DNA of 44,323 nucleotides from a virus: IMG/VR virus record IMGVR_UViG_3300049927_000028, positions 1 through 44,323 of that record, one strand, 5' to 3'. The notes under the pieces were generated by a model, which ran no database searches, was not told the DNA's origin, and saw nothing but the letters and a program-made list of their open reading frames with translations. Below, piece after piece: positions 3,695 through 44,323 of the stretch. Position 1 is the stretch's first letter. Each line of letters opens with the position of its first letter. Position numbers and translations under genes: made by a program.

Positions 3695-4067
3695 ATTTCC
3701 TAGCGAGAGCGTCGATGTAGAAGGGTAAGTGAGAGGGGGTTGTAGTACTATTCCGCTTCTTCCAATAGAGTTCCTTAACCCTCGCCGCTTGACACCTTTT
3801 GCAGTAATCGAGTGAAGCCGTGAAGAATGAAATGTCTTTTCTCTCCGTGCATCTAGGGCATTTCTTAGCACCCTCTATAACAGGATTAGGATTCCTCTCC
3901 CCCTTGGCAGGGTTTTTCTCCCGCGCCAATTCCCTTGCTTTAAGGTTCAGGCATGTTTTGCACGCGTAAGCATACCCCCGTCTATTGGGGGAGAAATGAG
4001 TTGTCTCTTTTATTTCCCTGCAAATATTACATAATTTCATTAATCTTTTCCTAGGTAGAAAATCCAC
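3693..4067 (-). CDS. Tandem zinc-ribbon protein (two CxxC...CxxC units), function unknown
   Basis: CNIC...CKTC and CPRC...CKRC. An alternative start at 4040 (MKLCNIC) forms a TAATG overlap with the helicase stop. Confidence 0.6.
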   Translation of the reverse strand: MDFLPRKRLMKLCNICREIKETTHFSPNRRGYAYACKTCLNLKARELAREKNPAKGERNPNPVIEGAKKCPRCTERKDISFFTASLDYCKRCQAARVKELYWKKRNSTTTPSHLPFYIDALARK

Positions 4068-5236
4068 ATTTCATTGTATTTCTCGCGGGTTTCGATTTGT
4101 CCGGAATTGGTCAGCCCCGCGACGATTCCGTTGAATTCTAGGAAGTCAGGGAAGGCAAAATGAATATACCGATAAGCTTCTTCATACGGGAGTTCTTTTT
4201 TCTGCTTGATGAAATCCAAAAGGCGTTCTGCGTAGAGGGATTCATCCGTGCGCCCAATTTTAGAAAACACCTTCAACATATCAGGTTCGATGTCGCAGAT
4301 CATTTGGTGGGCTAATTGAAGATCGGCAAGAGTGATAACCCTCTCATCCGAACGTGCCGCTGATATCACCATCGCTGTCTTATGCATGTGGGTTTGGCGT
4401 CGAGCCGCAAAGTTTCTCATAAAGGGGTCATTAATCATTGGTACGTCATGGTCCCAGTAGGTGGAATACCATTTATTCCCCCATGCTCGAGCTTCTTTTG
4501 TGAGAGTGAACGGGCCTACGACATTCTCGGCAATATGAGCAAGGTCATTTTGTAGTTTATCGCGCAACTCGGAATCGAAGTCGCTTAGATGTTCGTCTAC
4601 ATAGGCAATATGACGTTCTTTTTCATTTGCATACACAAACAAACAACGGGAGGTGAATCCGCCTCCGACAGCCGCCGCCGGCATGGAATCGGAAATCCAA
4701 GAAGGGGTAGTACATCCAATCATATTCACCCAAGGGGCGTCTACGCTATCATTCCCGCTTCCTTTGGTTTCTTTTGAAAGCGTCGATACCCCATCCCATA
4801 GGGTGATGTAGAGATTCAACATCTGCCGATCTTCGGGATTAATGAGATTCCCTAGTTCCCCTGCAACTAATGTCATCGCAGACATGGGGAGGAATTCACC
4901 CCCTAATGCGAAACTCTCAGTGCAAGCCGCAAGGGATTGTACAAGTTTAGGCCACGTGACGATATCGGGCCCGAAGTTGATCGCAGGGATTTCGCGCAGA
5001 AAACGCATTGCAGTATCCGCCGTAGTGGACTTTGCAATAACCCCTGGATCGGCCACAAAGATAATATAGAAAGACGGATACCATTTAAACCGTACCATGT
5101 CAATCCATACTTTCCTCCGCAAGGCTCCAGCAACCGCACTCACACCCGCCCAGAAGTGAACCTTCGAGGGCGCTTCGGTTACAGATGCGTAGGCTACATA
5201 GGCATCTAGCCAACTTTCAAGCTGTCTTGTTGTCAT
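4040..5236 (-). CDS. DUF3987-like P-loop ATPase, putative replicative helicase
   Basis: HFWAGVSAVAGALRRKVW...YPSFYIIFVADPGVIAKSTT (degenerate Walker A) and GGGFTSRCLFVY. Lies next to the DNA polymerase. Family call is from memory. Confidence 0.6.
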   Translation of the reverse strand: MTTRQLESWLDAYVAYASVTEAPSKVHFWAGVSAVAGALRRKVWIDMVRFKWYPSFYIIFVADPGVIAKSTTADTAMRFLREIPAINFGPDIVTWPKLVQSLAACTESFALGGEFLPMSAMTLVAGELGNLINPEDRQMLNLYITLWDGVSTLSKETKGSGNDSVDAPWVNMIGCTTPSWISDSMPAAAVGGGFTSRCLFVYANEKERHIAYVDEHLSDFDSELRDKLQNDLAHIAENVVGPFTLTKEARAWGNKWYSTYWDHDVPMINDPFMRNFAARRQTHMHKTAMVISAARSDERVITLADLQLAHQMICDIEPDMLKVFSKIGRTDESLYAERLLDFIKQKKELPYEEAYRYIHFAFPDFLEFNGIVAGLTNSGQIETREKYNEMWIFYLGKD

Positions 5237-5384
5237 CGGGAAACTTTGTTAGATATTCCTTCTGTTTTTCTTTGTTTGCGTAACAAACGATCTTATTTGT
5301 TCGGGTGTCCCGAAAAACTTCTTCTTTCGCGTCCCAGAACCAGTAGGTTAGTACTTCTTCATATTCAGGTGATGAGAATTTCAT
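5217..5384 (-). CDS. Hypothetical protein (55 aa)
   Basis: Start MKFSSPEYEE at 5384 makes a TAATG overlap with the polymerase stop. The longer track ORF begins at 5399. Confidence 0.5.
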   Translation of the reverse strand: MKFSSPEYEEVLTYWFWDAKEEVFRDTRTNKIVCYANKEKQKEYLTKFPDDNKTA

Positions 5385-7825
5385 TAACAATGCCCCCAAG
5401 AGATAGGTGATGTTTTTATGCCAATAGGAATGATTAATGGGTCGGAGTATGGTAATAGTATTTGTGATTGTTCAGTCATTTTTTGTATACATATTTCGGA
5501 CATTTCGGACGGGAATTGACCCGCTAATGAATCATGAACCTGTAATAATACCTGAACTTCAGGGATGTTTTCGTAAATATTAACCCATGCGCGGTTGATT
5601 ACGCAAGCGACGGTGGATTGGGGTATCCATGCGAGGGCTTCCGGGAGCAGGCCATCGGTTTTTTCAAAATAAAACCTCCGGTAGCCTAGTATGTTTTCTA
5701 CATAATGTTTGGAGGCTAATTGTTGCTCTACCCTTTCATGCCATTGTTTTATACCGGGGTATTTCCCGAAATATAACTTTTGGAATTTTTCTGCCTGATG
5801 GACAGTGACCCCCGCAGCAATAGCCATGGTTCGTGCCCCGCCGCCATAATTCGTTCCATGAATAAACGCTTTCGCTAATTGTCGTTCTTTTTTATAATCG
5901 GATTTAAATCGGATACAAGATTCCGTTCCTTCAATGAGGTCGTCTAAAGCAACTTCTTTCCCTAGCAGGGCAAATGCATTTAATAGATGCATGTCAACCC
6001 CCTTTCGAAGCGCTTCTTTTAGTTCCGCTTCCCCCGCTTCCCAGACCACCACTTGCAAATCCGCCCGGTCTAAGTCCATATCAAAAAAAGTAAATCCTTC
6101 ATCTGGTATAAAAAGTTTCCGAATATTAGGCAAACTGAGACGATTAGGATCATCATGATCGTCCCCCTTCGGGACATTCTGAAGGTTGGTTCCGCAATCG
6201 AAGGCATTCTTGGAAGAATTGAACCGATAGGTTTCTGTCCCGCAGATGTTGTATGAGCACCGCATCCTTGAATCAATATCAAGTTTGGCGGCGACGAAGG
6301 TCGAAAGGAAGACACCAAGGGTTCGGTATTCGTTAATAGCTTTAATGAGGGGCAGCATGACGGGATTTCGCTTTCCGATAAGCTGAAGGGCATCGTCGTC
6401 ACAGGTAAGATGAGAGGGCGATCCTTTCTTGGCGCGGGTAAATATCTTTTGGTTCTTGAGGTCTTCGTAGAATAAGGAACACATCTGAAGGGATGAGCGC
6501 GGATTAAGAGTATGCCCCAATGTACTCGTGAGGAAATTTTCGCAGTTTTGCATCTCAAGTTCAAGTTCTTTCGAAAGCTTTCGTCGTGCGCTAAGATTAA
6601 TTCGAACGCCACGTTGCATCGCTGATAAAACCGGCCAGAAAAGTCTTTGCTGAAACGCTTCCACATCCGCGAGTCCCAGCGACTTAATGTTCTCAAGCTC
6701 GACCTCCCCACATTCTCGAGTCCTGACGCAGTCAACAGCGTTGTATGCCCAAAGTTGATCCTCCGAGACATTCTTTGTCCATGTTTTACCATCATCTTTC
6801 CAGTATAGGTAGTCTTTGCAGTAAAGGGAGGCTTGAAATGCGAGGGATTTCGGGAGTCCCGCAAAACAAGTGTGGTGGGAGATCATTGTATCTTGGGCTA
6901 CTCGGGGTATAAAATGCCAATGACGGTAGGTGTATTGGCAATCGTAGAGGAGGTTTTGCCCGCGGACGCGTACATTCTTATGCGTGAGTAGTTTGTATAA
7001 GGCAAAGGTTATACTGGCTTCTTCTTCGAGCGGCCAGTAGCCGTTGTAGTTTTCCACGCACATTAGGGGGATGCAAAGCGCGTCTCTTTTTGTCCAGGAG
7101 ATTCCGGCGCAAGCAATGTGCCCCGCACGGGTTTCTAAGTCAAAGTCAATCCAAAGGGGAATGCCGTCGTCAAGGCGTTTAGTTAGCGCCCTTAAAATCC
7201 CCAATGCTTTGACGAACGACGGGCGGATAGTGAAATCCCAATCATCCCCCGGAATAGCGTAGGGGGGATTTTTCATAGAAAGTTCTTTTACCCTCCGGAG
7301 GTCAGAAACCACCATAGCACGATTCTCATGGATGAAGGTAACCATATAGGGCGGTAGGGTTGGGATTACCACTATTCCTGTGCGCACGCCATCAAGGGTA
7401 ATTTCCTGCAACCGGCTCCCCCGCCACTTCACAATTCCACTTGCCCCCGTCAGCGCCCACATCGCCAAGTTTCCGAACGCGATAATTATTTTCGGTTTGA
7501 CGAGTTCGATTTCTTTACGAAGACGTAAATAGCCTTGGTGAATAGGGCTAGTACAATACAGATTACGGAAAGGACGATGAGCTGGCGTAATAGTATTTTT
7601 CTTATAAGAGACATAGGAGGAGACATCATCACGAGGAGGGCGAGAATTAACGATGTTAGTAAGGTAGCAGTCATTTCTATTTAACCCCGCTTCGAAAAGC
7701 ATTTTGTTTAGATCTTCCCCCGCTCGCCCAAGAAAAGCTTCACCTGCAGTTTCCTCTTCGCTAGTGAAACATTCCCCGACAAGCATGATGGAAGCATGTG
7801 GATTCCCGGTTCCGAATCTCGGCAT
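5384..7825 (-). CDS. Family A DNA polymerase (3'-5' exonuclease + polymerase) with an N-terminal family-4 UDG-like domain
   Basis: N-terminus GTGNPHASIMLVGE...FLGRAGEDLNKML (UDG fold). Exo motifs DFDLET, NLLYD and YNAVD. Pol motifs DLDRADLQVV, RQLAKAFIHGTNYGGG and QVHDS. Confidence 0.95.
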   Translation of the reverse strand: MPRFGTGNPHASIMLVGECFTSEEETAGEAFLGRAGEDLNKMLFEAGLNRNDCYLTNIVNSRPPRDDVSSYVSYKKNTITPAHRPFRNLYCTSPIHQGYLRLRKEIELVKPKIIIAFGNLAMWALTGASGIVKWRGSRLQEITLDGVRTGIVVIPTLPPYMVTFIHENRAMVVSDLRRVKELSMKNPPYAIPGDDWDFTIRPSFVKALGILRALTKRLDDGIPLWIDFDLETRAGHIACAGISWTKRDALCIPLMCVENYNGYWPLEEEASITFALYKLLTHKNVRVRGQNLLYDCQYTYRHWHFIPRVAQDTMISHHTCFAGLPKSLAFQASLYCKDYLYWKDDGKTWTKNVSEDQLWAYNAVDCVRTRECGEVELENIKSLGLADVEAFQQRLFWPVLSAMQRGVRINLSARRKLSKELELEMQNCENFLTSTLGHTLNPRSSLQMCSLFYEDLKNQKIFTRAKKGSPSHLTCDDDALQLIGKRNPVMLPLIKAINEYRTLGVFLSTFVAAKLDIDSRMRCSYNICGTETYRFNSSKNAFDCGTNLQNVPKGDDHDDPNRLSLPNIRKLFIPDEGFTFFDMDLDRADLQVVVWEAGEAELKEALRKGVDMHLLNAFALLGKEVALDDLIEGTESCIRFKSDYKKERQLAKAFIHGTNYGGGARTMAIAAGVTVHQAEKFQKLYFGKYPGIKQWHERVEQQLASKHYVENILGYRRFYFEKTDGLLPEALAWIPQSTVACVINRAWVNIYENIPEVQVLLQVHDSLAGQFPSEMSEICIQKMTEQSQILLPYSDPLIIPIGIKTSPISWGHC

Positions 7826-14604: not shown

Positions 14605-14747
14605 TATGCGTCCCCTATTACCATGCAATATAGGATTAAACATAGGTTGAAAGCGCCGAGGATGGAAACTAGACTTCTTTCATTAAGAAGCATAACTTCC
14701 AACATACATTGAGTACAAAGAAAGAAAAAATATAATAATCGTTTCAT
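14604..14747 (-). CDS. Possible hydrophobic microprotein (47 aa), not in the ORF track
   Basis: My own translation: MKRLLYFFFLCTQCMLEVMLLNERSLVSILGAFNLCLILYCMVIGDA. ATGA overlap upstream and TAATG downstream, but the SD is weak. Confidence 0.3.
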   Translation of the reverse strand: MKRLLYFFFLCTQCMLEVMLLNERSLVSILGAFNLCLILYCMVIGDA

Positions 14748-14920
14748 TTTAGGCTTTCGAAGTGGTTTTTAATTAAGGAAATAATAAATGTTTGATAAAC
14801 CCCTACTGGTAATGTGCCTCCGTTTTTCTTCATTAGATATTTGTCTACTTGATATCTAAGATCGGCCGGAAGGCTAGTGTTCAATCTCGTGGGTCTTATT
14901 GCGGACTTCGGGCGTGCCAT
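14744..14920 (-). CDS. Ribbon-helix-helix (Arc/CopG-like) DNA-binding protein (58 aa), not in the ORF track
   Basis: My own translation: MARPKSAIRPTRLNTSLPADLRYQVDKYLMKKNGG... The N-terminal beta-strand plus two helices fit the RHH pattern. TAATG overlap with the upstream stop. Confidence 0.55.
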   Translation of the reverse strand: MARPKSAIRPTRLNTSLPADLRYQVDKYLMKKNGGTLPVGVYQTFIISLIKNHFESLK

Positions 14921-15186
14921 TAGAATTTGCCTAGTAAAGCATTGAAAAGATTCTTCCAGTATCCCTTGTTTGTAACTAAAACTATTTTCATATTTTTTCT
15001 TACTTTATCGCATACCTCCCGATCTTTTTCCGGTAGCGTCTCCCCTAATACCGCTTCTACGTTCCTGCTTATAGCCTGGGCAAGTGCTACCCTCTTACGT
15101 AACTCTTCTCGTCTTTGCTCCTCTGCATGCGATTTCATGAAGGCGCTTATATGACTTGTATCATAGGTGTATACCGGATCGCTCAT
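14920..15186 (-). CDS. Hypothetical protein (88 aa)
   Basis: Track ORF with SD AAGGAacttaa-ATG. A promoter-like element lies just upstream. Confidence 0.6.
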   Translation of the reverse strand: MSDPVYTYDTSHISAFMKSHAEEQRREELRKRVALAQAISRNVEAVLGETLPEKDREVCDKVRKNMKIVLVTNKGYWKNLFNALLGKF

Positions 15187-17704: not shown

Positions 17705-17965
17705 CTACGCCCAATCTCGGAGTTTTCGGTTTAACAAATCCGGATTAATTTTATCCGCTATCCCAATCCGGTTATCCTTAATCCCGTCCACCGCGGTGGC
17801 AAATCCGGCCGTCCATGCATCCAACCAACAAGAGTAGGTAAATTCCATACTATTATCCGCGAACGTTTCCCCCGAAATCGTCAACAACGACCCCCATATT
17901 TTGAAACATGGATGTTCTTTCCCACAATACTCAATAAAACTGGCCCGGTCTCTACTATAGGTCAT
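17705..17965 (-). CDS. Hypothetical protein (86 aa)
   Basis: Track ORF with SD GGAGGtaatt-ATG. Confidence 0.6.
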   Translation of the reverse strand: MTYSRDRASFIEYCGKEHPCFKIWGSLLTISGETFADNSMEFTYSCWLDAWTAGFATAVDGIKDNRIGIADKINPDLLNRKLRDWA

Positions 17966-18188
17966 AATTACCTCCGCTAAAACATTCCGGGGGAAGTCGA
18001 AAGAATTCTAAATTCTGTGTCCGGCTTTGCTCTTTCGCAAGCTCGATAATTGGGTGATCAGAGCGTTCTACTTCCGCTGCGTAGGAATTCACCACATCCG
18101 TATCCCTGCTGATGAAAATCCCATTCTTATGATAGCTCAGGAGAAATGCGGCTATCTCATTCTTCCCGCGTTGGTTAATCTTTCTCAT
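17955..18188 (-). CDS. Hypothetical protein (77 aa)
   Basis: ATG at 18188 (MRKINQRG) makes an ATGA overlap with the upstream stop and has AAGGAG upstream. The track start at 18281 would overlap the upstream gene by 97 nt. Confidence 0.5.
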   Translation of the reverse strand: MRKINQRGKNEIAAFLLSYHKNGIFISRDTDVVNSYAAEVERSDHPIIELAKEQSRTQNLEFFRLPPECFSGGNYDL

Positions 18189-18415
18189 TTCATATTCTCC
18201 TTGATCTGCCGGATGATTTCCCCTGTATGCGAAACCGCTAGACGTATAGTATGTATGTACTCCACCATCTGCGGTTGCCATTGCCAGTAGGACGACAACT
18301 TATTCAACCACTGGAGGATTTCGACTTCCGAATCCCCCGCTGTTTGCTTATGATTCAGAATCTTCATAAGGGATTCTTTTATCCCCTCTAACCTAATCGG
18401 AGTTAAGTCGCTCAT
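18185..18415 (-). CDS. Hypothetical protein (76 aa)
   Basis: Track ORF with an ATGA overlap with the upstream stop. Confidence 0.55.
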   Translation of the reverse strand: MSDLTPIRLEGIKESLMKILNHKQTAGDSEVEILQWLNKLSSYWQWQPQMVEYIHTIRLAVSHTGEIIRQIKENMK

Positions 18416-18696
18416 GACGTCATCCCCCCGGTTGATTTTCGATTCGCGATTAGCAAATTAAGAAGCTCGTGTAGGACTTCCTCTTTCCCAAACGGGGCTT
18501 GGTAGATTAAGTTTGATTTCCCATCCCCGCTTGTGACCCGCACTAGCGTCAATCCCTTATCCCCGTATTTCAGGTAATAATGCCCCACCTGTTCTTTGTG
18601 CCCCTTTTCGGCCGCCATGAATCTCTCCGTTGGCATCCCTGACAATCGGTTCACTTCATGGACTTGGGCTTCTAGCACCGACATTAAGCCTCTCAT
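18412..18696 (-). CDS. Hypothetical protein (94 aa)
   Basis: Track ORF lying 1 nt after the upstream stop. Confidence 0.6.
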   Translation of the reverse strand: MRGLMSVLEAQVHEVNRLSGMPTERFMAAEKGHKEQVGHYYLKYGDKGLTLVRVTSGDGKSNLIYQAPFGKEEVLHELLNLLIANRKSTGGMTS

Positions 18697-18697
18697 T

Positions 18698-18889
18698 TCA
18701 TTCCCCCGGAAAATTAATCAACACGTCCCTTATTTCCGCTAATTGATCTTCCGTAATACTTAGCCAATTAGTTACTTTCCCGTCTGCCGATCTAATTTGC
18801 AACGCGCATCCTCGGGAGACTTCTTTCTTCAACCTATCAATTTGCCCTTGGATATATAACGATTGTATTTGGTTGTCATTGGTATTCAT
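18698..18889 (-). CDS. Hypothetical protein (63 aa)
   Basis: Track ORF with an ATGA overlap with the upstream stop. Confidence 0.55.
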   Translation of the reverse strand: MNTNDNQIQSLYIQGQIDRLKKEVSRGCALQIRSADGKVTNWLSITEDQLAEIRDVLINFPGE

Positions 18890-19068
18890 TTTTCTTGTTC
18901 CTTATGATTTGGGTAATTATTATCTTTAAATATAATATAAGATTCCTCATAAGCTATCGGGTCGACTAGTTTAAATGCTTCACTCACATCGTACTGAAAT
19001 CCGCAAATAACCACCGACCCCCAACATTCATCTAGGTATTCGTCGAAAACAATATAATTATTCCCCAT
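18886..19068 (-). CDS. Hypothetical protein (60 aa)
   Basis: Track ORF with SD TAGGAGaatgaa-ATG. Confidence 0.55.
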   Translation of the reverse strand: MGNNYIVFDEYLDECWGSVVICGFQYDVSEAFKLVDPIAYEESYIIFKDNNYPNHKEQEK

Positions 19069-19077
19069 TTCATTCTC

Positions 19078-19251
19078 CTAATGTTTTGTCGCCGCGTCAC
19101 TTAAGCCTAATAGAGCTTCTTGGTATTCCACTTCGGGGGTTAATGTCTTCCCATACCCCAACGTGTCGCTTACAAACCTTATCTTCGCCTCTGCGAGCGC
19201 GGCTACGTAAGCTTCCTGTATCTCTTCCATTGTTGGATTCTTCGTTTTCAT
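19078..19251 (-). CDS. Hypothetical protein (57 aa), not in the ORF track
   Basis: My own translation: MKTKNPTMEEIQEAYVAALAEAKIRFVSDTLGYGKTLTPEVEYQEALLGLSDAATKH. SD AGGAGaacgtt-ATG. Confidence 0.55.
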   Translation of the reverse strand: MKTKNPTMEEIQEAYVAALAEAKIRFVSDTLGYGKTLTPEVEYQEALLGLSDAATKH

Positions 19252-19260
19252 AACGTTCTC

Positions 19261-19425
19261 CTATTGACCTTCCGATTTCCCCAGAACCAATATCAATGTA
19301 GTTTTTTCTGCTTCCCGTATAAAATCCTCCGCCATCCGTCCAATAATCTCCAAGCGTTCTTTGTATTCTTTAAGCTCCACACTCAGAGATTCATATTGGG
19401 TGTTTGGGTTAAGTAAATTATCGAT
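19261..19425 (-). CDS. Possible ORF without a canonical start (54-57 codons; ATC initiation, or readthrough of the upstream TAG)
   Basis: Only frame 0 is open: ENIIDNLLNPNTQYESLSVELKEYKERLEIIGRMAEDFIREAEKTTLILVLGKSEGQ*. A strong AGGAG lies at 19436-19432. In-frame ATC codons sit at 19428 and 19425. Confidence 0.3.
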   Translation of the reverse strand: MDNLLNPNTQYESLSVELKEYKERLEIIGRMAEDFIREAEKTTLILVLGKSEGQ

Positions 19426-19434
19426 GATATTCTC

Positions 19435-19602
19435 CTATGCTTGAGCTTGATACCACTGTTCGATGACTTCGATAGCCTTCACAATATCCTTATCATCCCG
19501 ATACATTTGTTTATGGTATTGTAGTCTGGTGAGGATACTTTCCACTTCATCACCCTGTTCTTTCTCGAAAGCTTCCCGTATCCATTTGATTGTATTTAAC
19601 AT
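19435..19602 (-). CDS. Hypothetical protein (55 aa)
   Basis: ATG at 19602 (MLNTIKWIREAF) behind AGGAGaatctatc. The track ORF extends to 19686 without an SD. Confidence 0.5.
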   Translation of the reverse strand: MLNTIKWIREAFEKEQGDEVESILTRLQYHKQMYRDDKDIVKAIEVIEQWYQAQA

Positions 19603-19658
19603 GATAGATTCTCCTAAAGACCCAACGAATGAAGTAATCGTAATAGACTTATATAAAC

Positions 19659-19760
19659 CTAATAACCTACAAAACCGTAATAACATACCTTAATTAAGAC
19701 TATTATCCAAGCTGCCATCGCGGCGCTGAATACTACTTTTTTTATCCTTTCGATGGTCAT
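19659..19760 (-). CDS. Membrane microprotein (33 aa), not in the ORF track
   Basis: My own translation: MTIERIKKVVFSAAMAAWIIVLIKVCYYGFVGY. SD AAGGGGAacgaa-ATG. Confidence 0.35.
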   Translation of the reverse strand: MTIERIKKVVFSAAMAAWIIVLIKVCYYGFVGY

Positions 19761-19770
19761 TTCGTTCCCC

Positions 19771-19896
19771 TTACCAATTTATCCCTGCGGTTGCAGAATT
19801 CGCATAAACAAGCCAGATGGCTATAAGATACCCAATGATTTCTAATGTTTTTTGGTATACATTCCATAATATTGATTTGATTTTATCTGAGTTCAT
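19771..19896 (-). CDS. Membrane microprotein (41 aa), not in the ORF track
   Basis: My own translation: MNSDKIKSILWNVYQKTLEIIGYLIAIWLVYANSATAGINW. SD AGGAGaagaaa-ATG. It is the first gene after a strong promoter. Confidence 0.45.
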   Translation of the reverse strand: MNSDKIKSILWNVYQKTLEIIGYLIAIWLVYANSATAGINW

Positions 19897-19928
19897 TTTC
19901 TTCTCCTGTTTAGTCATTCCATACACGT

Positions 19929-19957
19929 ATAATAGTTCCGCGCGCACGGAATGTCAA
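19929..19957 (-). promoter_or_regulatory. Strong sigma70-type promoter TTGACA-17nt-TATTAT with a GC-rich palindrome in the spacer
   Basis: Minus strand: TTGACA (19957-19952), spacer TTCCGTGCGCGCGGAAC, TATTAT (19934-19929). The spacer holds a 14/16 palindrome TTCCGTGCGCGCGGAA (19951-19936). Confidence 0.55.
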
Positions 19958-20004
19958 GGATTATTTTAATTTATTTCTGGTGATTTGTTTTAATAGCGCA
20001 TTTC

Positions 20005-20151
20005 TTATTCCCCTCTACCCCTGTTTCCCCCCCCCTCCATTAATATATTAAATACATCACCCCAATTTTCCGGTAGTATTGTTACCCCATCCTTATCCAT
20101 CCCTACTATGTCGTCACCTATAAATTCTATATTGTATGTTTCCTTTGTCAT
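20005..20151 (-). CDS. Hypothetical protein (48 aa) containing a G9 homopolymer, not in the ORF track
   Basis: My own translation: MTKETYNIEFIGDDIVGMDKDGVTILPENWGDVFNILMEGGGNRGRGE. SD AAGGAaaatatc-ATG. The C9 run on the plus strand is at 20027-20035. Confidence 0.4.
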   Translation of the reverse strand: MTKETYNIEFIGDDIVGMDKDGVTILPENWGDVFNILMEGGGNRGRGE

Positions 20152-20163
20152 GATATTTTCCTT

Positions 20164-20319
20164 TTATTTAAAAAATCTATCGTATAAATACACTATATGC
20201 CATTTCCATTCATGCTCCGCCATATCTTCCTTGATAGGCAATTCATTTTTCCTGTACTGGGTCACATGCATAGAGGTTGCTTCCCCATCCTCTATCACTA
20301 ATATATACACTTCCTTCAT
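20164..20319 (-). CDS. Hypothetical protein (51 aa), not in the ORF track
   Basis: My own translation: MKEVYILVIEDGEATSMHVTQYRKNELPIKEDMAEHEWKWHIVYLYDRFFK. ATGA overlap with the HTH gene stop and GAGGGGG upstream. Confidence 0.5.
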   Translation of the reverse strand: MKEVYILVIEDGEATSMHVTQYRKNELPIKEDMAEHEWKWHIVYLYDRFFK

Positions 20320-20621
20320 ACATCCCCCTCTCCCATCGGATTTTTTTCCGGTCTGCTTGCATCAGCCTTCTGCCTCTTCGCCTCTTCCTGTTCCCTAAGG
20401 AGTCGCATACCCGCTTCTTTAATTGCCTCGCTTGTCCCCATCGCATTACTATGCGTCACTTGTGTCCATGTATCCCCTCTCAGTATCCTTCGCACTGTCT
20501 CCGTGCTCACCTTAAAGAAGTACGCTATATCCCTCGCCCGCTCCCCCCTCCTCGCCGCCACCCATATCTTCCCCACATCTTCCCCGCTCAACTTCGCATT
20601 TGGTTTCTTTTCGTATGCCAT
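20316..20621 (-). CDS. HTH DNA-binding protein (101 aa), first gene of the leftward unit
   Basis: ATG at 20621 behind GGGGAaatgaa. LSGEDVGKIWVAARRGERARDIAYFFKVSTETVRRILRGDTW is a classic three-helix HTH. Confidence 0.65.
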   Translation of the reverse strand: MAYEKKPNAKLSGEDVGKIWVAARRGERARDIAYFFKVSTETVRRILRGDTWTQVTHSNAMGTSEAIKEAGMRLLREQEEAKRQKADASRPEKNPMGEGDV

Positions 20622-20660: not shown

Positions 20661-20689
20661 ATTATAACACAACACTTCACCCCTCCAAC
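20661..20689 (-). promoter_or_regulatory. Candidate early leftward promoter with an extended -10 (TGtTATAAT)
   Basis: Minus strand: TATAAT (20666-20661) preceded by TGT (20669-20667). Weak -35 GTTGGA (20689-20684). About 40 nt upstream of the ATG at 20621. Confidence 0.45.
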
Positions 20690-20817
20690 AACAACAACAG
20701 TACATATATTAATATTTCTTCGAGTCTAAATGTTGTTAAGAATTAAAAAAAAATATATTAATAAATAACAACACATTCTAATAAGCTCAACAATATATCT
20801 ATAGTGGTTGTTGTTGG
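20685..20817. repeat. Four CAACAA/TTGTTG blocks in alternating orientation around an AT-rich core (operator-like array)
   Basis: ccaacaacaacaacag 20685-20700, tgttgtt 20731-20737, aacaaca 20767-20773 and tggttgttgttgg 20805-20817. The outer blocks form an 11-bp perfect inverted repeat (20685-20695 / 20807-20817). Confidence 0.7.
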
Positions 20818-20880
20818 TGCTGCTAACTGTCAGAGACACAATATCCGGTGAGCGGGGGAAATGTTACGGGATTGCCGACT

Positions 20881-21203
20881 TGCCGCTCCGAAGCTCCCGA
20901 AGCCTCCGAGACCCCCACAATCCCTCCATTCCAACCCTACCTACCCTACCCCCCGCTTCATTTAAATCGAATAGCGGGCGTTTAAACGAGCCTCATTATT
21001 GTTCTTCTGATATGTTTATTGTTACTCTACCATCTTCTGTTGCCAACCTACCATCTTCTGGGCCCCCTTTTAACTACCCCAACGAAACCCAAATAGATCT
21101 TCTGCCCCTTCACTTCTACCCCCGCCTGCGTCGACTGCCCCGAAGCCTCCCGTCCCCCGCTGCCCACTTCTTCCGCTTCCGATCCCCCCTACCCGCCTCC
21201 TGA
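20881..21203. other. Strand-asymmetric C-rich/G-poor non-coding block with short repeats, immediately upstream of the terS-like gene (candidate pac/cos, origin or leader element)
   Basis: cccgaagcctcc at 20897 and 21140. ctaccatcttctg at 21027 and 21048 (21-bp period). TCTTCTG x4 at 21003, 21033, 21054 and 21098. CTACC x8. ATTTAAAT (20960) and GTTTAAAC (20980) lie 20 bp apart. Confidence 0.6.
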
Positions 21204-21286
21204 ACATAGGTGCCGGGGGAGCAAAAAGAAATTCTTGTATTATTATTTAGCCCACCGAACTATTTTTTTGTGAAAATTTAGATGAC

Positions 21287-21333
21287 TTGCCAGAATGACA
21301 AGTGTAGGCAGTAGAATAATACTAGTGTAGAAT
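21287..21333 (+). promoter_or_regulatory. Candidate rightward (late) promoter region
   Basis: TTGCCA (21287)-19nt-TAGAAT (21312), and TAGGCA (21305)-17nt-TAGAAT (21328). The second would start transcription at about the ATG at 21340. Neither is a strong match. Confidence 0.3.
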
Positions 21334-21339
21334 GGCGGG

Positions 21340-21927
21340 ATGGAAAATGAGAATGAAGAGAAGAAATTTGATCCCGAAGGGGTGGCGGAAAGAGTCACGG
21401 AGAATTACTCTGTCTCCCGGCCTCAAATTGACAAGGTGAGGTATACCCATAATGCTATGGTGGATTTGCTCATAACGAATCCGGGAATAAGCCAAGATCG
21501 GATTGCGCAGTATTTTGGGTATTCCCCAAGTTGGGTTTGTACGATCCTTGCGAGTGACGCGTTTCAGGTGCAGTTGGCGAGGCGCAGGCATGAATTGATC
21601 GATCCGAGTATTGCTGCAACGATCGAAGAAAGATTCAAGGCGCTAGCCGAAACAAGCGTGAATAAATTGATCGAACATATTAATCGCCCGATGGTGAATG
21701 TGGACCCAGAGATATTAATTAAAGCCGCGGCCCTCGGGGCGAAGGCACTAGGAATCGGCGGGAATGCTGCCGCAAAAACAGTAGTGATTAGTTCAGACGA
21801 AAGATTACAAGCTCTCAGCGGAAGGCTCACTGGGTTGTTAAGGAAACAAAACGAGGAGATTATAAATGTCGAAGTCAAAGAAATCAACCGGGGCGAAGCT
21901 GGGAGTAGCTCAGAAGAAAGCAGTTAG
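21340..21927 (+). CDS. terS: Putative terminase small subunit / DNA-binding packaging protein
   Basis: First gene of the late unit. HTH ISQDRIAQYFGYSPSWVCTIL followed by helical segments. Upstream of terL, though two ORFs intervene. Confidence 0.5.
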   Translation: MENENEEKKFDPEGVAERVTENYSVSRPQIDKVRYTHNAMVDLLITNPGISQDRIAQYFGYSPSWVCTILASDAFQVQLARRRHELIDPSIAATIEERFKALAETSVNKLIEHINRPMVNVDPEILIKAAALGAKALGIGGNAAAKTVVISSDERLQALSGRLTGLLRKQNEEIINVEVKEINRGEAGSSSEESS

Positions 21928-22553: not shown

Positions 22554-23988
22554 ATTAGTCGAAGCCTTCGCGGGGATGTTCCTTTCTTCCCGCTACGATA
22601 ATCCAGACCCCGTTCCGGATTTCCATAGGGAATGTTGGGAGTTATATACTTCCGATGTTACCCAAGCCATGGTGATAGCGCCCCGAAACCACGCTAAATC
22701 AACCGCCCTTTCATTTGCCTATATTCTAGCGGAAGTAATGTTCCGCTCTTCCGATTATGTTATTTTTATTAGTTCGACTGAGGGTAATGCGGCGGAGTTC
22801 GTATCCAATATATATGAGGAGCTTCATAATAACGATGCTCTTATTGCTGAGTTTGGTCCGTTCGAGTTTGAAACTGATAGTAAAATAGATTGCATAATAA
22901 AATTCTCCGATGGGCATAGGTTTAGAATTATAGCTCGCGGAGCTGAACAAAAGATCAGGGGAAAGATGTGGAATGGGAAGCGGCCGAATCTGATCGTTAT
23001 GGATGATGCGGAGGAAGACGAAGCCGTAGCAAATAAAGACCGGAGGGAGAAGTTTTCTAACTGGTTCTTCCGCGCCGCCAAGCAAGCATTGAGTAGGCAG
23101 GGGAAAATCCGAGTCCACGGAACAGTACTTCATGAAGACTCCCTCCTCGCCCGGCTTAGAAAAAACATCGCATGGAAACACCTCTTTTATAAAGCCCATG
23201 AAGGGTTTGATGATTTCTCTAATATCCTTTGGCCGGAGCATTGGTCCGAAGACGCCCTCCGTGCGGTACAAAAAGAATTCATCTCCAATCATGATGCGGC
23301 TGGATACTCCCAAGAGTATCTCAATAACCCCATGGATAATTCCGAAGCCTTCATTCGGAAGGTTGATTTCATAGGAATGGAAGAAGAGGATTTCACCTAC
23401 CCGATGATTGTATGCGCGGCGGCGGATTTCGCGGTGTCTACTCGCGATAAAGCGGATAGGACCTGCTTCGTTATAGGGGGAAAGGCGATAAACAATGTGC
23501 TATATTACCTTGACACCCGCGTGGGACGGTGGGATACTATTACGTGGATTGAGGAAATGTTTTTAATCCAACAAAGGTGGAATCCTGAAGTCTTCTGGGT
23601 CGAGGACGGGGTCATTTGGAAATCCATCGCCCCGATGGTCTACAAAGAAATGCAAGTAAGAAACATCTTCATCAACTGCCAACCCCGGATGCCGATAAAA
23701 GACAAAGCCACTCGAGCTCGCTCATATCAGCGTAGGATGCGTGCAGGGGCTTGTCGTTATGATATGGAAGGTGATTGGTATCCCGGATTTGAGGAAGAGA
23801 TACTAAGATTTACAGGGTATAGCGAAGCGAGTAAGGATGATCAAGTAGATGCGGCAGCTCTTCTAAGTTTGGGGTTTGACGACCTCCAAGAGATGAGTTC
23901 CGATGATTTCATATCGGAGGAAGAGGAAGATATGATAAAGACAGACCCGCGTAAAATCAGGGGGCGTAATACGATAACTGGGTATTGA
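22537..23988 (+). CDS. terL: Terminase large subunit
   Basis: PDFHRECWE...VIAPRNHAKST (Walker A-like), LIVMDDAEEDE (Walker B) and a C-terminal RNaseH-like nuclease region (AADFAVST...DRTCFVIGG...DDQVDA). Confidence 0.95.
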   Translation: MKLTPELVEAFAGMFLSSRYDNPDPVPDFHRECWELYTSDVTQAMVIAPRNHAKSTALSFAYILAEVMFRSSDYVIFISSTEGNAAEFVSNIYEELHNNDALIAEFGPFEFETDSKIDCIIKFSDGHRFRIIARGAEQKIRGKMWNGKRPNLIVMDDAEEDEAVANKDRREKFSNWFFRAAKQALSRQGKIRVHGTVLHEDSLLARLRKNIAWKHLFYKAHEGFDDFSNILWPEHWSEDALRAVQKEFISNHDAAGYSQEYLNNPMDNSEAFIRKVDFIGMEEEDFTYPMIVCAAADFAVSTRDKADRTCFVIGGKAINNVLYYLDTRVGRWDTITWIEEMFLIQQRWNPEVFWVEDGVIWKSIAPMVYKEMQVRNIFINCQPRMPIKDKATRARSYQRRMRAGACRYDMEGDWYPGFEEEILRFTGYSEASKDDQVDAAALLSLGFDDLQEMSSDDFISEEEEDMIKTDPRKIRGRNTITGY

Positions 23989-23990
23989 CT

Positions 23991-24470
23991 ATGGTTACAA
24001 AAGAAGAGTTATGTAGGTTATTTGACTATAGAGATGGGTCTCTTTATAGGAAGATCTATACTCACGGTGGGGGCGCGGTCGGCCGTAAGGTAGGGTCTAA
24101 TCAAGGGAATGGGTATCTATCGGTGAGGGTGAATACAAAATTGTATTTGCTGCATCGACTTGTATTCCTGATGCATCATGGATACCTTCCCAATTCTATC
24201 GATCATATAGATGCCGATAAATCTAATAATAAAATAGAAAACCTTCGTGTATGCACACATTCCCAGAATGGATTTAATGCGCAGAAAAGAAAAAATAATA
24301 CGTCAGGGACTAAAGGCGTATCTTGGTCTAAAATAGCTAATAAATGGCATGCTTATATTCATATAAATAGGGTAAAAAAAGGTCTAGGGCATTTTGATTC
24401 TCTGGAGGAGGCGACTAAAGTTGCGCAAGAGGCGCGTATAAAGTATCATGGAGCCTTTGCTAGATGTTAG
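23991..24470 (+). CDS. HNH endonuclease with a C-terminal AP2 DNA-binding domain (homing-type)
   Basis: HRLVFLMHHGYLP..IDHIDADKSNNKIENLRVCTHSQN (HNH), then GVSWSKIANKWHAYIHINRVKKGLGHFDSLEEA (AP2). ATG at 23991 is preferred to the track TTG at 23985. Confidence 0.85.
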   Translation: MVTKEELCRLFDYRDGSLYRKIYTHGGGAVGRKVGSNQGNGYLSVRVNTKLYLLHRLVFLMHHGYLPNSIDHIDADKSNNKIENLRVCTHSQNGFNAQKRKNNTSGTKGVSWSKIANKWHAYIHINRVKKGLGHFDSLEEATKVAQEARIKYHGAFARC

Positions 24471-40192: not shown

Positions 40193-43100
40193 TGCCGTTC
40201 GTACCCGACGCGGATCAATCAGCGGGACAAGCGTCCCCGCCACCAGGAGCTTCCATAGGTAAATTTGTACCGGATGTGAAACAACCGGCTATTCAACAGG
40301 CTTCTACTGGTAATTCCAATATCGATAAATTCAAAACGGATTATGCTTCTGCGGCGGCTAAAGCAGGGAAAGAACTCAATGTAGACCCTTCTCTTATCCT
40401 CGCTCAATGGGGGCATGAAACTGGTTGGGGGAAGAGTATTATCCCCGGCACCAATAACCTCGGAAATATAAAAGGAAAAGGTGGTGTAGAAGCTACCGAT
40501 AACCAACTGGGTACAAAAGATACTTATGCGAAGTATAAAGATAACGAAGAATTCGTGAATAAGTATGTTGATTTAATTAAGTCTAGATATCCGTCCGCAA
40601 TGGGAGCAGGGAAGGATGCGGGGAAATTTACGTCCGGATTAAAAGGGTACGCGGAAGATAAGGAATATGCTAAGAAGGTATCGGCAGCTGCGGGTAGGGT
40701 AGGAGAGGTCTCGCAAGCAGAGGAATTGAAATCCCAAGATACCACTAAAAAAACAGCACCTTCCGGGCCTATAGTAGATGGGGGAGAGAAAAAACCGGAT
40801 GGGATGCTGATAGCCACTGCAAAGAATCTAGTTGCCGGAGCGGATATCATAGCCAGTACTCCGGGGGCTATGTTAGGTCCACTCGCCTCCGCTACAGGCC
40901 GCTGGGTAGCTATCGCTCAAGGCGCTCAAGGGGAAGATATATCTAAATTCGGTTCTGAGTTTGGCAATAAGATATCCGAGAATTTATCCAGTCCAATACA
41001 CAAGATGTTAGATGTGTTGGGAGTGGATTTTAGTTACACCGAATCGGGCGTGTCGAAAGCAATGGGTAAGGTGTCTGAAGCTGTAGGTAAAGGGGCGGAA
41101 TATGTACAGAAGAAATCGGGCGGAGTGCTGACGAAAGAAGATGCCCAAGACTTAACTAATGCGGTCGCATTATTGGCTGCCCCCGCTAGTATTAATATGG
41201 CCTCGAAGGCCCTGCTTGGAGCAGGGAGGGCTGCGAAAGCAATCGGAACAGCAGGGAAGCCGGTTGAAGAAGCAGTTCTCAGGGAAGTCGATAGCGGAGC
41301 GCCCTCTGCCCCAGCAGCAAAATCTACTCCAGTTTCTCTAGCCAAGCAGCACATAGAAGAGACTACGGGCATTAGTAAGATGAAAGAAGAGACTCCGCAG
41401 TATAAAGAGCAGCGCAGGGCAGATGCTAGAGCCGCCTTCCCGGAAGACCCTCAATACGCCGAGTATTTAAAATCTCACTCCGATATGGCCGCCGTAGCGA
41501 AAGATACCCCTAATGTAGTGGGGATGCAGAAAATTGAACTTCAAGAAGCAGGAAAAGCAGCACGGGGGGAGGTGGTTGAAAAACCCGTCGTCACCTATCA
41601 AGATGCGTTACCAATACTAAAGAAGCCCGGATTCGAACGTACAGCAGAAGACTTGATTAAGCTGAAAGCATTCAATAGTCAAAGAGGTTCCGTAGAACCC
41701 GAAATGCTAGCTAAGATGGCGACTATTGGAATTGGCGTTACTGCGGGACTAGCCCTTGACCCTGACCATAAATTAGAAGGCGCGTTACTCGGGGCAGCAG
41801 GAGGTTATGCAGTAGCAAAGATCGGGTTTAAAGCAGGGGATTCGGTAAAGACGGTGAAAGAATTCTTCGGGCCGGATAAACGGATTCGCATAAATGATTT
41901 CGCTGATCATTGGGAATCCTCAATTGGGAAAGCTAGCCGATCTATTTATCAAGACGTGTCTAAGGTTATGGATAAGGCGAAGACCCCTGAGAGCCGGACT
42001 AAGATAACTAATTGGATTCAAGGGGATAAGTCCATCAAGCTGACGGAGGCAGAATACCAAGCAGCGAAAGATGGTCGGGAGTTCTTTAATAATATGGGGA
42101 AGGAAGGGTTAGCTTCCGGAGTTCTTACGCATTTAATCCCAGATTATGTAACTAACCTATGGGATTTAGAAGGTTCCAATAAAGCAGTCTGGACAAAGAC
42201 TACTTCTAATATGTCACCGAAGTCTAAGTTCGACCTGCAAAGAAAAATATCCTCGTTAAAAGAAGGTAAGGAAATGGGGTTGAAGCCTGTAACAGAAGAC
42301 CTTGCAGTGATTATGGGTATGTATGGAAATTCTCTTTCCAGAACTATGGCGAATAAGCAATTGATTGATACGTTAAAATCCACAAAAGTGGGGGAGAATT
42401 CCCTTTTAGCCTCTTCGGGGGAAGCTCCTAAGAATTATGTTCCGGTTGACCACCCGCAATTGCAAGGGCAAATGGTTCATCCTGACATTGCTAAGTCAAT
42501 GCAGTTTATGTTTTCCCGTAAAGCGCCTCATGGAATTATCGCTGGGTTGGAGGGGGTGAATACGGCAGTGAAAAGATTGAATGTATCTCTTTCATTATTC
42601 CATGCTAAGTCTTTGGCGGATGCTTTTGTAGGAGCTGGTGGAAATCCTTTACGTATCCCCGGAATGGCAACCGGAGCGAATAAGTTCCTCAAACAAATAC
42701 GCGAGGGCGGTGCGGGGGATATCGTGGATAAGGCATATGAAGGGGGATTAATGTTCACTCTCCCGAAAGGGGGTTTAGCGGTTGAAGATGTTGGAGGGTC
42801 TTTCTATAAGACCATGGAGGGTTTGCATAAAATATCCAACGATATAGTTCCCGGATTAGGGGTTTTAGTTAAGGGGTTTGAACACCTTAACCATGCAGTG
42901 GACACTATTATGTGGGAACGCCTTCACGCAGGGATGAAATTAAATATTTTTTCCGATTCTTTTGAGAAGTTAAAGCAGAATAATATAGATGCTAATGCAA
43001 AGGATTCCACAGTCCCCCTGAAAACTGACAAACAATTATCAGGGATAGCTGCAAGCTATGCTAACGATCTTTTTGGGGGTTTGAATTGGAGACGGGCGGC

Positions 43101-43776: not shown

Positions 43777-44323
43777 ATATCTTAATGATCGATCAATACG
43801 GAATTCTCGTATCCCAAGCCCTCGATGCGATTGCCGACGGGCATAAGGTTAAATCTTGGATGCCGAGGACAAAATTCCAGAAGCCCTCGAAAATCGGAGA
43901 TGGAATGGTGGATAAAGTCCGTGATTGGCATTCCCATATTCACTGGGCGGATTTGATTATTACCGCAACGAATCAGAAGTATATGAGGGAAATAACCCCC
44001 CTATTCACTAAAGGGTATCCAGTGTTTGGATGTAACCCGAAAGCAGCGGAGTTGGAACTTGATCGTGGGCATGGGCAGGAGATATGCTCGGCTTATGGGA
44101 TTGATACCCTTCCATATGAACTATTCTCTTCTTATGACGACGCGGCGGCGTACGTTAAAAAAACTATGGGAACGTATGTCTGCAAACCATGGGGAGGTGC
44201 GGACGATAAGGGATTGAGTTATGTTTCGGGGTCTCCTGAAGACATGATTTGGAAACTCGGTAAATGGAAAGAAGGCGGGAAGCTTCGCGGTCAGATTATG
44301 ATCCAGAAACGTATTAAAGGGAT
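43773..44323 (+). CDS. PurD-like ATP-grasp ligase, N-terminal part (runs off the window end; continues at 3..896)
   Basis: ATGA overlap with the ejection-protein stop. MNILMIDQYG... N-domain and VCKPWGGADDKG ATP-grasp loop. No stop before the window end. Confidence 0.85.
   Translation, partial: MNILMIDQYGILVSQALDAIADGHKVKSWMPRTKFQKPSKIGDGMVDKVRDWHSHIHWADLIITATNQKYMREITPLFTKGYPVFGCNPKAAELELDRGHGQEICSAYGIDTLPYELFSSYDDAAAYVKKTMGTYVCKPWGGADDKGLSYVSGSPEDMIWKLGKWKEGGKLRGQIMIQKRIKG
44197..44323. repeat. Right copy of the exact 127-bp terminal overlap
   Basis: Identical to 1-127 by direct reading. Confidence 0.95.

Follow-up and report, generated by a model that had tools for sequence, protein, structure and literature searches.

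In the non-coding control region (NCCR) of polyomaviruses and in the displacement loop (D-loop) of animal mitochondria, one non-coding region lies between divergent transcription units, carries promoters together with an origin, shows strand asymmetry and consists of conserved blocks separated by fast-evolving segments, C-tracts included. Here we analyze a C-rich, G-poor block at positions 20881-21203 of a virus sequence of 44,323 nucleotides (IMG/VR record IMGVR_UViG_3300049927_000028, positions 1 to 44,323; hereafter the window), which lies between two divergent gene arms and precedes a gene resembling terS, the small terminase gene (the terS-like gene). We read the block, tentatively and as possible rather than probable, as the fast-drifting middle of a control region: a largely empty site for an accessory gene cassette, kept for the length and spacing that it would provide between an origin-like element with an early promoter on one side and late promoters on the other.

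A second point of reference is provided by the replication origins of staphylococcal pathogenicity islands (SaPIs), in which short repeats in opposite orientation flank an AT-rich center, differ from lineage to lineage and are bound by a self-loading Rep helicase (PMC9371898). An element of similar design lies beside the block in the window. Only one stretch of at least 120 nt in the genome (20706-21331) has no open reading frame (ORF) on the strand used by the arm. The elements recognized in and around this stretch are listed below in window coordinates.

20661..20690, minus strand: predicted early promoter P_E, with a -35 box TTGGAG at 20683-20688 and an extended -10 box TGTTATAAT at 20661-20669
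20672..20830, no strand assigned: inverted-repeat/AT-rich element, with arms at 20672-20710 and 20792-20830, arm cores (CAA)4 and (GTT)3, and a center containing A9TATATTAATAAA
20881..20958, no strand assigned: left C-rich arm, ending in CTACC/TACCC repeats at 20937-20954
20959..20987, minus strand: palindrome island with two TTTAAA palindromes, terminator-like in relatives and degenerate in the window
20988..20994, minus strand: GAGCCTC (GAGGCTC on the minus strand), the putative ribosome-binding site of gene X in relatives
20995..21065, no strand assigned: AT-richer core, with a 21-bp tandem duplication of CTACCATCTTCTG (21027, 21048) and a conserved ATTGTTACTCT(A/G)CCATC
21066..21203, no strand assigned: right C-rich arm, the fastest-evolving part, with C-runs able to pair with the G-run that follows
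21212..21225, plus strand: G-run motif GCCGGGGGAGCAAA, family consensus GGGG(N)GGGGCAAA, where the GC skew changes sign
21237..21273, plus strand: AT-rich stretch GTATTATTATTTAG resembling an UP element, followed by a conserved CGAACTATTTTTTTGT; probable distal late promoter P1
21305..21339, plus strand: predicted proximal late promoter P2, TAGGCA-17-TAGAAT, its -10 box ending 6 nt before the ATG at 21340
21340..21927, plus strand: terS-like gene (195 aa), with a weak HTH_23 match and a predicted N-terminal helix-turn-helix (HTH) followed by long helices

The block is composed of 18.6% A, 42.1% C, 13.3% G and 26.0% T, and 68% of its plus strand is pyrimidine. Two arms of about 50% C (20881-20960, with 52.5% C and 11% G; 21066-21203, with 49% C and 12% G) enclose an AT-richer core (20961-21065, with 25% C and 38% T), which bears out a preliminary description of this DNA as dominated by C and T with few G. 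The same description had placed the block immediately upstream of the terS-like gene, but 136 nt (21204-21339) intervene, and these hold the G-run, the AT-rich element and the late promoters. The short repeats it had listed are in place: CTACCATCTTCTG occurs twice with a 21-bp period (21027 and 21048), TCTTCTG four times (six genome-wide) and CTACC eight times (64 genome-wide), and the 8-bp palindromes ATTTAAAT and GTTTAAAC lie at 20960 and 20980. The repeat CCCGAAGCCTCC shared by the two arms is also present, although at 20896 and 21139, one base from the positions first given. Among 2000 dinucleotide shuffles of the block, an exact 13-mer repeat arises in 35, a 13-mer together with a separate 12-mer repeat in 11, and some 7-mer in four copies in 496, so that the four copies of TCTTCTG are not special. 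Similarity between the two arms of the window is not significant, being reached by 85 of 500 composition-matched shuffles. An ancient duplication of the arms was considered and rejected, as their similarity does not exceed that of shuffled sequence in the window and is significant only in relatives L011 and L025, through other repeats.

The block does not encode a protein, nor is it a structured RNA. The ORF that runs through it (20808..21203, 131 aa) has no match in Pfam or PHROGs, insertions and deletions relative to homologous sequences are not multiples of three and break its frame, and mismatches between relatives L011 and L012 fall on the three codon phases as 16/13/12, with no third-position excess; the non-coding call made in the preliminary description is thus upheld, and a long open frame is to be expected in stop-poor, C/T-rich DNA. 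On either strand, RNAalifold predicts no pairs over the conserved center, and searches of the block with Rfam (at the gathering threshold or at E up to 5) and with a tRNA scan returned nothing. Pairing of the C-runs with the G-run as a hairpin signal was likewise tried and discarded: such stems appear in all eight folds, with z-scores near 0 except in L025, and given how many C-runs are present their prediction is not evidence.

Relatives of the window phage were found by protein searches (L011-L015 and L019-L025, the IMG/VR contigs L002-L007 and GenBank MW202796), a DNA search of the block and the late genes against 50,697 phage records having given no match. The TerS-like proteins of L011, L012 and L013 are 86% identical to that of the window, those of L014 and L015 72% and 64%. 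The closest cultured relative is the Microcystis phage Mel-JY34 (L030), whose host is Microcystis elabens and which has the same divergent gene layout. Only three loci, short and distant, came from scanning metagenomes with the TerS-like protein, and scanning genomes gave one 46 kb contig binned with a Cellvibrionaceae metagenome-assembled genome, in which the upstream layout is different. Homologous blocks are found in L011, L012, L013, L014, L019, L022, L024 and L025, and alignments give an order of elements common to the relatives: the early promoter, the inverted repeat around its AT-rich center, a C-rich stretch ending in TACCC-type repeats, the island TCAAAACAAATCGC...GCGTTTAAAC, GAGCCTC, the core with ATTGTTAC...CCATC, a second C-rich stretch, the G-run GGGG(N)GGGGCAAA, an AT-rich stretch, ACTATTTTTTTG, and the proximal promoter with the ATG. 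TACCC-type repeats occupy the same place in L014, L019, L022, L024, L015 and L003, and CATTTAAATCGA of the island is invariant in the window, L011, L012 and L013. The G-run keeps its relative position in the window and in L011, L012, L014, L019, L022, L024, L025, L015, L002, L003 and L007; Mel-JY34 has a tract of ~140 nt with ~55% C, then a shorter G-run GCGGGGGG and then a TTGACA promoter.

What is kept among the relatives is therefore position, C-richness and a few short islands, and not the arms or the 13-mer repeats. Measured between the window and L011, the closest relative, identity is 0.83 in the inverted-repeat element and 0.74 in the TerS-like coding sequence (0.61 at the four-fold sites of the terS-like gene), 0.62 in the left arm, 0.46 in the core and 0.48 in the right arm, or 0.29 when gaps are counted. 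The comparison of repeats with flanks that had been suggested at the outset thus turns out against a conserved repeat array: the 13-mers have no counterpart in L011, L012 or L014, and the arms and core change at or above the synonymous rate. As judged from these alignments, most of the block is under no sequence-specific constraint. L011 and L012 offer a closer view. Their flanking sequences are 99.7-100% identical, and the number of matching positions is 568 of 570 for the terS-like gene, 839 of 840 for TerL, 53 of 55 for the island and 89 of 90 for the promoter region. A segment of ~180 nt that spans the right half of the core, the right arm and the G-run (L011 546-725, L012 61-230) is nevertheless only ~70% identical, with insertions and deletions. 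This divergent stretch is either a swapped module or a hypervariable patch. Between L019 and L020 the block is not unusually variable, and it is the first early gene that has been swapped. These differences mark the control region as a frequent recombination boundary.

The anatomy of the block becomes interpretable through gene X, a leftward accessory early gene of 180-201 aa that is carried by four relatives and is absent from the window.

L002 3355-3915, minus strand: gene X
L003 3123-3656, minus strand: gene X
L007 544-1084, minus strand: gene X
L015 2475-3017, minus strand: gene X

Gene X lies between the palindrome island and GAGCCTC in L015 and L003, where GAGCCTC stands 6-7 nt before its ATG and can for this reason be taken as its ribosome-binding site, read on the other strand. 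AGCCTCC is found at the same distance in L002; the box of L007, GGAGAA, is weaker and precedes the ATG by 5 nt. At the other end of the gene, the TACCC repeats and the island of L015 lie ~58 nt past the stop codon, and on the minus strand the island of L015, L014 and L024 presents a hairpin followed by a U-rich tract, in the manner of a terminator, of which the window has a degenerate form. No gap separates the island from GAGCCTC in the window and its closer relatives, and a tblastn search of the whole window with the L002 and L003 proteins found no trace of a gene X remnant. The simplest reading of this arrangement would be that the coding part of gene X is missing in the window phage and its flanks have been left behind. 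The accessory-gene site is plastic: L022 and L024 carry another insert, between the inverted repeat and the TACCC repeats, with a G-rich plus strand and a called ORF of 126 aa. Gene X itself has no family match in Pfam or PHROGs. Its upstream regions contain several (A/T)TGACAA(T/C) boxes, such as TGACAATTCTGGGC, which occurs twice in L002.

The composition of the block is shared with its surroundings. At four-fold sites on the sense strand of the early genes, the G-over-C skew is ~0 at 4-17 kb, rises to 0.26-0.71 at 17.9-19.3 kb and, in the three genes nearest the control region, stands at 0.92-1.0 in two (25 G to 1 C; 6 G to 0 C) and at 0.5 in the third. On the same strand the skew of the block is 0.52, a level to be expected of unconstrained DNA within a biased domain of ~3 kb. 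Among 323-nt windows, those with the strongest skew in the genome fall within early genes, at 20000-20500, and not in the block, and the skew switches sign only at ~21200, with the cumulative GC skew minimum of the genome at 21200. The first early genes of relatives are similarly biased (four-fold skew of 0.6-0.8 in L015, 0.62 in L014, and 0.64 in Mel-JY34, followed there by -0.6 further on). Simple cytosine deamination is not the cause, since A exceeds T on the G-rich strand. The four-fold bias was located at 17955-20621 in the window (minus-strand genes), at 518-2103 in L015 and at 42493-43270 in Mel-JY34, and it fades to zero or reverses within 1-3 kb.

These observations suggest the following model, in which any function given to the block is one that we infer. 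P_E would fire leftward from ~20654 and P1 and P2 rightward from ~21270-21340, with the block lying between them and upstream of both. Its first part, comprising the left arm, the TACCC repeats and the palindromic island, would correspond to the 3' trailer of gene X, with its terminator-like hairpin in relatives; its second part, GAGCCTC, would be the ribosome-binding site of gene X, itself missing in the window phage; and its third part, the core and right arm, would stand in place of the upstream region of gene X, with C-runs that end facing the family-wide G-run before the late promoters. In such a largely empty, decaying cassette site the bases would be free to drift toward the regional bias, under which the leftward sense strand is purine-rich, and drift of this kind would explain why the plus strand is rich in C and poor in G, why it has short repeats of the slippage type and why a long ORF arose by accident. 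The present role of the block would rest on its length and composition rather than on its exact sequence, as a spacer holding the late promoters apart from the origin-like element and the early promoter. Leftward transcription of the block would be weak at most, yielding an untranslated, purine-rich RNA.

Several points weigh against this model. The reverse event, a gain of gene X in other lineages, is possible. The region upstream of gene X is not C-rich in L015, L003 or L007, so the composition of the arms was not simply inherited from a leader. A scan for leftward promoters to the right of the block gave low-scoring matches only, at inconsistent positions, and for want of a convincing promoter there the membership of the block in the leftward unit rests on composition and on the homologues that bear gene X. 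Lastly, ~300 bp have been kept at this place in many lineages of a compact genome, which argues for some function beyond that of filler.

Promoters were called by a position-weight-matrix (PWM) scan. P_E scores 11.0 in the window, and promoters at the equivalent site score 16.2 in L015, 12.4 in L024, 11.7 in L014, 11.6 in L003 and 11.6 in L025. It precedes the first early gene (20316-20621), which encodes an HTH protein and, by homology with L003 and L011, starts at 20621. On the late side, eight of nine phages (the window, L011, L014, L019, L022, L024, L002 and L003) have a near-consensus sigma-70-type promoter (P2 in the window, 21328-21342) whose -10 box stops 5-8 nt short of the ATG of the terS-like gene. 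L015 differs in having a leader of 27 nt together with a ribosome-binding site. From this spacing, the mRNA of the terS-like gene, the first late gene, is probably leaderless. The AT-rich stretch at 21237-21273 is invariant or nearly so among close relatives and, together with CGAACTATTTTTTTGT, which it precedes, probably forms the distal late promoter P1; its homologue in L019 and L025 reads TTGACA-16/17-TATACA, and in L025 it lies directly before the gene as the only promoter there. No rightward promoter stands out upstream of the block, and in the AT-rich core the scan returned only weak, chance-level matches. The block lies upstream of both promoter sets, and both operons run away from it.

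The inverted-repeat/AT-rich element at 20672-20830, beside the block, is the best candidate for an origin in the genome, as judged from its architecture and conservation. It is 83% identical to its counterpart in L011, against 61% at synonymous sites. Arms of 19-45 nt are present in nine phages and are built from lineage-specific triplets (CAA/GTT, GAC/GTC, CTC/GAG, CCA/TGG). Within each phage they stay complementary, around a center with an A8-A13 run and just upstream of the early promoter. Wobble mismatches in the arms show no bias between strands (7 versus 13). The element was located in relatives as follows.

L003 2876-3076: inverted-repeat element
L007 1-250: inverted-repeat element
L011 214-378: inverted-repeat element
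L014 2901-3059: inverted-repeat element
L015 2172-2330: inverted-repeat element
L022 2184-2344: inverted-repeat element
L024 532-679: inverted-repeat element
L025 904-1068: inverted-repeat element

A second AT-rich inverted repeat was seen in the early/replication arm at 14717-15006, with 33-nt arms that are 82% complementary and 224 nt apart.

The window is a complete podophage genome of ~44.2 kb, obtained from sequencing run SRR35794962 and assembled as a circle, as indicated by the identity of its two ends over 127 nt. These ends (1-127 and 44197-44323) lie inside an ORF and represent an assembler overlap, not a biological terminal repeat. Among the genes of the leftward arm (20621 down to 3693) are small early genes and genes for nucleases, a Sak4-like protein, a family-A polymerase with a uracil-DNA-glycosylase (UDG)-like domain and a DUF3987 helicase-primase (4040-5236). 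The rightward arm begins at 21340 with the terS-like gene, runs round to 3611 and also encodes a GP4-type fiber-tail adaptor, TerL, an HNH endonuclease, an SU10-like portal and structural proteins. Neither a phage RNA polymerase nor a recognizable replication initiator was seen among the window genes. The family-A polymerase (5384-7825, minus strand), whose closest cultured homologue is that of Mel-JY34 (41% identity), carries an N-terminal domain of the uracil-DNA-glycosylase superfamily. Between TerL and the portal lies an HNH_3 + AP2 endonuclease gene (23985-24470), which looks like a mobile homing endonuclease rather than packaging machinery; L011 has the portal directly after TerL.

The preliminary interpretation had offered three functions for the block, as a terminase recognition site, an origin with iterons or a Rho-dependent leader, and for the block itself each of them proves weak. 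As to the first, the terS-like gene lies two small genes upstream of TerL. Its product has only a weak HTH_23 match in Pfam; its AlphaFold model has a mean pLDDT of 75, exceeding 90 over the HTH; and a fold search of the PDB ranked the phBC6A51 phage protein 2AO9 first, though without significance (E 0.38). PDB sequence searches with TerL, the TerS-like protein and the helicase returned nothing informative. The terS assignment is plausible but unproven.

If the block or its right edge were a packaging region, holding the genome ends (as direct terminal repeats) or a pac cut, the early-gene end would be the last part to be packaged and the first to arrive in the cell, with the late promoters arriving last of all. 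The terminal non-coding DNA of T7, with ~500 bp of repeat-bearing sequence between the left end and the first early promoter, lends this some color, as do several features of the window: its only non-coding region adjoins the terS-like gene, the distance between the G-run and that gene is constant throughout the family, and composition switches sharply at ~21204. The best NCBIfam match of TerL is to the T7-type large terminase, at 23.6 bits against a cut-off of 150. In addition, L008 and L009, partial contigs of a distant clade from different samples, begin at the same base (within 4 nt) upstream of the terS-like gene; the shared start (L008 1-45, L009 1-41) lies just upstream of promoter-like sequence before that gene, and may be a real genome end or an assembly break common to both, at low-complexity DNA comparable to the (TA)n tract of L001. 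Contigs of the window's own clade show no consistent end position, and the terminal overlaps (127 nt in the window, 123 nt in L007) are assembler artefacts. A recognition sequence should also be conserved with its small terminase, whereas L011 and L012 have the same TerS-like protein P0002 (genes differing at 2 of 570 nt) and a right arm and G-run that are only ~70% identical. We regard packaging at the block as unlikely, while a terminase site in the conserved island, the G-run or the promoter (P1) region is possible.

A different use of the block's asymmetry would be as a zone of G-rich priming, like that of the mitochondrial D-loop or of ColE1, in which a leftward G-rich RNA, possibly stabilized by G-quadruplexes (G4), stays hybridized as an R-loop and primes the family-A polymerase beside the AT-rich unwinding element. 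The minus strand of the block has 42% G and 17 tracts of three or more G, and the block holds eight of the genome's 36 G4Hunter windows scoring at least 1.5; four such tracts with short loops form one canonical motif, GGGCAGCGGGGGACGGGAGGCTTCGGGG (21138-21165, minus strand), with G4Hunter scores up to 2.0. The preliminary description had pointed to this potential and to the G-rich GGGGGGTAGGGTAGGTAG, and both are real, as a by-product of G-richness, but the canonical motif is absent from four of seven relatives (L014, L022, L024 and L025). The cumulative skew minimum at 21200, a hypervariable segment between conserved blocks in the sole non-coding region, divergent promoters, and a gene set with a family-A polymerase and a DUF3987 helicase-primase and no recognizable initiator are all consistent with such a zone. 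The effect of gene orientation cannot, however, be separated from the skew, which is weak along most of the two gene arms, and the promoter scan gave no credible leftward match to the right of the block. We consider priming in the block improbable. The strongest G4Hunter signal of the genome (2.56, GGGGGGGGGAAACAGGGGTAGAGGGG) lies outside the block, at 20004-20051 on the minus strand, at the 3' end of a 48-aa early ORF and just past its stop. A broader conception, which we consider distinctly improbable, would make the whole a D-loop-like phage control region, with R-loop RNA priming the family-A polymerase beside a helicase-loading inverted-repeat element and with the ~3 kb bias, synonymous sites of the first early genes included, selected for this purpose; in a variant, no less possible, the right edge of the block would be the genome terminus and the biased domain the first DNA to enter the cell.

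An iteron-type origin inside the block, with an initiator bound to the CTACCATCTTCTG copies, TCTTCTG and the CTACC boxes, is very unlikely. The 13-mer recurs at two helical turns and is rarer than chance would have it (35 of 2000 shuffles), each relative has short direct repeats of its own, and an AT-rich region lies next door (19% G+C at 20700-20799). Iteron arrays usually have at least three phased repeats, which should persist among relatives, though, and here there are two 13-mers 21 bp apart, missing from the homologous positions in L011, L012 and L014 and set in a core that is 46% identical to L011, below the value at synonymous sites. The pattern resembles a recent 21-bp tandem duplication, and the inverted-repeat element is a far better match to known origin architecture (PMC9371898).

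The proposed Rho-dependent leader fares no better, and we assign it a very small probability. A rightward C-rich RNA would load Rho at a Rho-utilization (rut) site and stop before the late genes until antitermination, or the site would silence antisense transcription. The composition is suitable, since a rut site comprises at least ~80 nt of C-rich, G-poor and weakly structured RNA and 78-nt windows in the arms count 30-44 C and 7-13 G; as in rut sites, it is the composition and not the sequence that is conserved, and antisense RNA of the first early genes would be equally C-rich. A rut site must nevertheless lie inside a transcript, after its promoter, and the best rightward promoters (21270-21333) are strong and lie beyond the block, the first late gene being started without a leader. 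The rightward matches in the AT-rich core are weak and at chance level, and with both operons running away from the block nothing reads into it. A C-rich tract is found, moreover, in Mel-JY34, a cultured relative that infects Microcystis, and cyanobacteria lack Rho (PMC13289151).

The probability that the block encodes a real Pro/Ser/Leu-rich plus-strand protein, as ORF 20808..21203 or a shorter form from an ATG near 21009, is next to nil: in L011, L014, L019 and L025 the plus strand is likewise open over the block, for 94-132 codons, and the FIVTLPS codons differ from L014 at third positions only, but at the composition of the block a stop is to be expected no more than about once per 46 codons, the frame starting at the conserved (A/T)TGACAAC is stopped early in L022 and L024, no ribosome-binding site is present, gene callers place no plus-strand gene there, and the frame-breaking indels and even mismatch phases described above point the same way.

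Taken by itself, the block is an ordinary piece of phage control region, and its annotation as a pac site, an origin or a rut site is unwarranted. The useful outcome of the analysis is a map of the control region for a widespread and almost unstudied family of podophages of ~44 kb, from soil and lakes and with one cultured Microcystis phage. The map comprises a single control region, an origin-like inverted-repeat element, a probably leaderless late operon, an accessory early-gene slot and an unexplained domain of strand bias, and it gives testable handles on early and late timing and on the start of replication in a phage without its own RNA polymerase or sigma factor.

Compared with known systems, the block resembles the pac sites of SPP1 and P22 and the ends of T7 in being non-coding, in carrying short repeats and in lying near a small-terminase-like gene, but differs in that its sequence is not conserved together with the TerS-like protein. 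With rut sites of the lambda tR1 type it shares at least 80 nt of C-rich, G-poor plus-strand RNA with little structure; unlike them, it has the promoters for the downstream genes beyond it, and a related tract occurs in a phage of a host group without Rho. Szybalski's pyrimidine clusters and purine loading find a parallel in the plus strand, the template of leftward early transcription, which is 68% pyrimidine in the block, and in the bias at synonymous sites of the early genes, although the block of the window lies upstream of the predicted early start and the bias is far above the genome average. For the SaPI origin the likeness is to the element at 20672-20830 and not to the block: both have lineage-specific opposed repeats around an AT-rich center, and the window phage has a DUF3987 helicase-primase and no recognized separate initiator. 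The arms here are triplet runs of 19-45 nt and the SaPI iterons 5-6 nt, the element lies upstream of the early promoter of a lytic phage whereas the SaPI origin lies downstream of rep, and the DUF3987 helicase has no detectable sequence match to solved Rep structures. Finally, while the analogy with the polyomavirus NCCR and the mitochondrial D-loop is one of architecture only, the phage genome being ten times larger and packaged as linear DNA, the window shows the same layout as those control regions.

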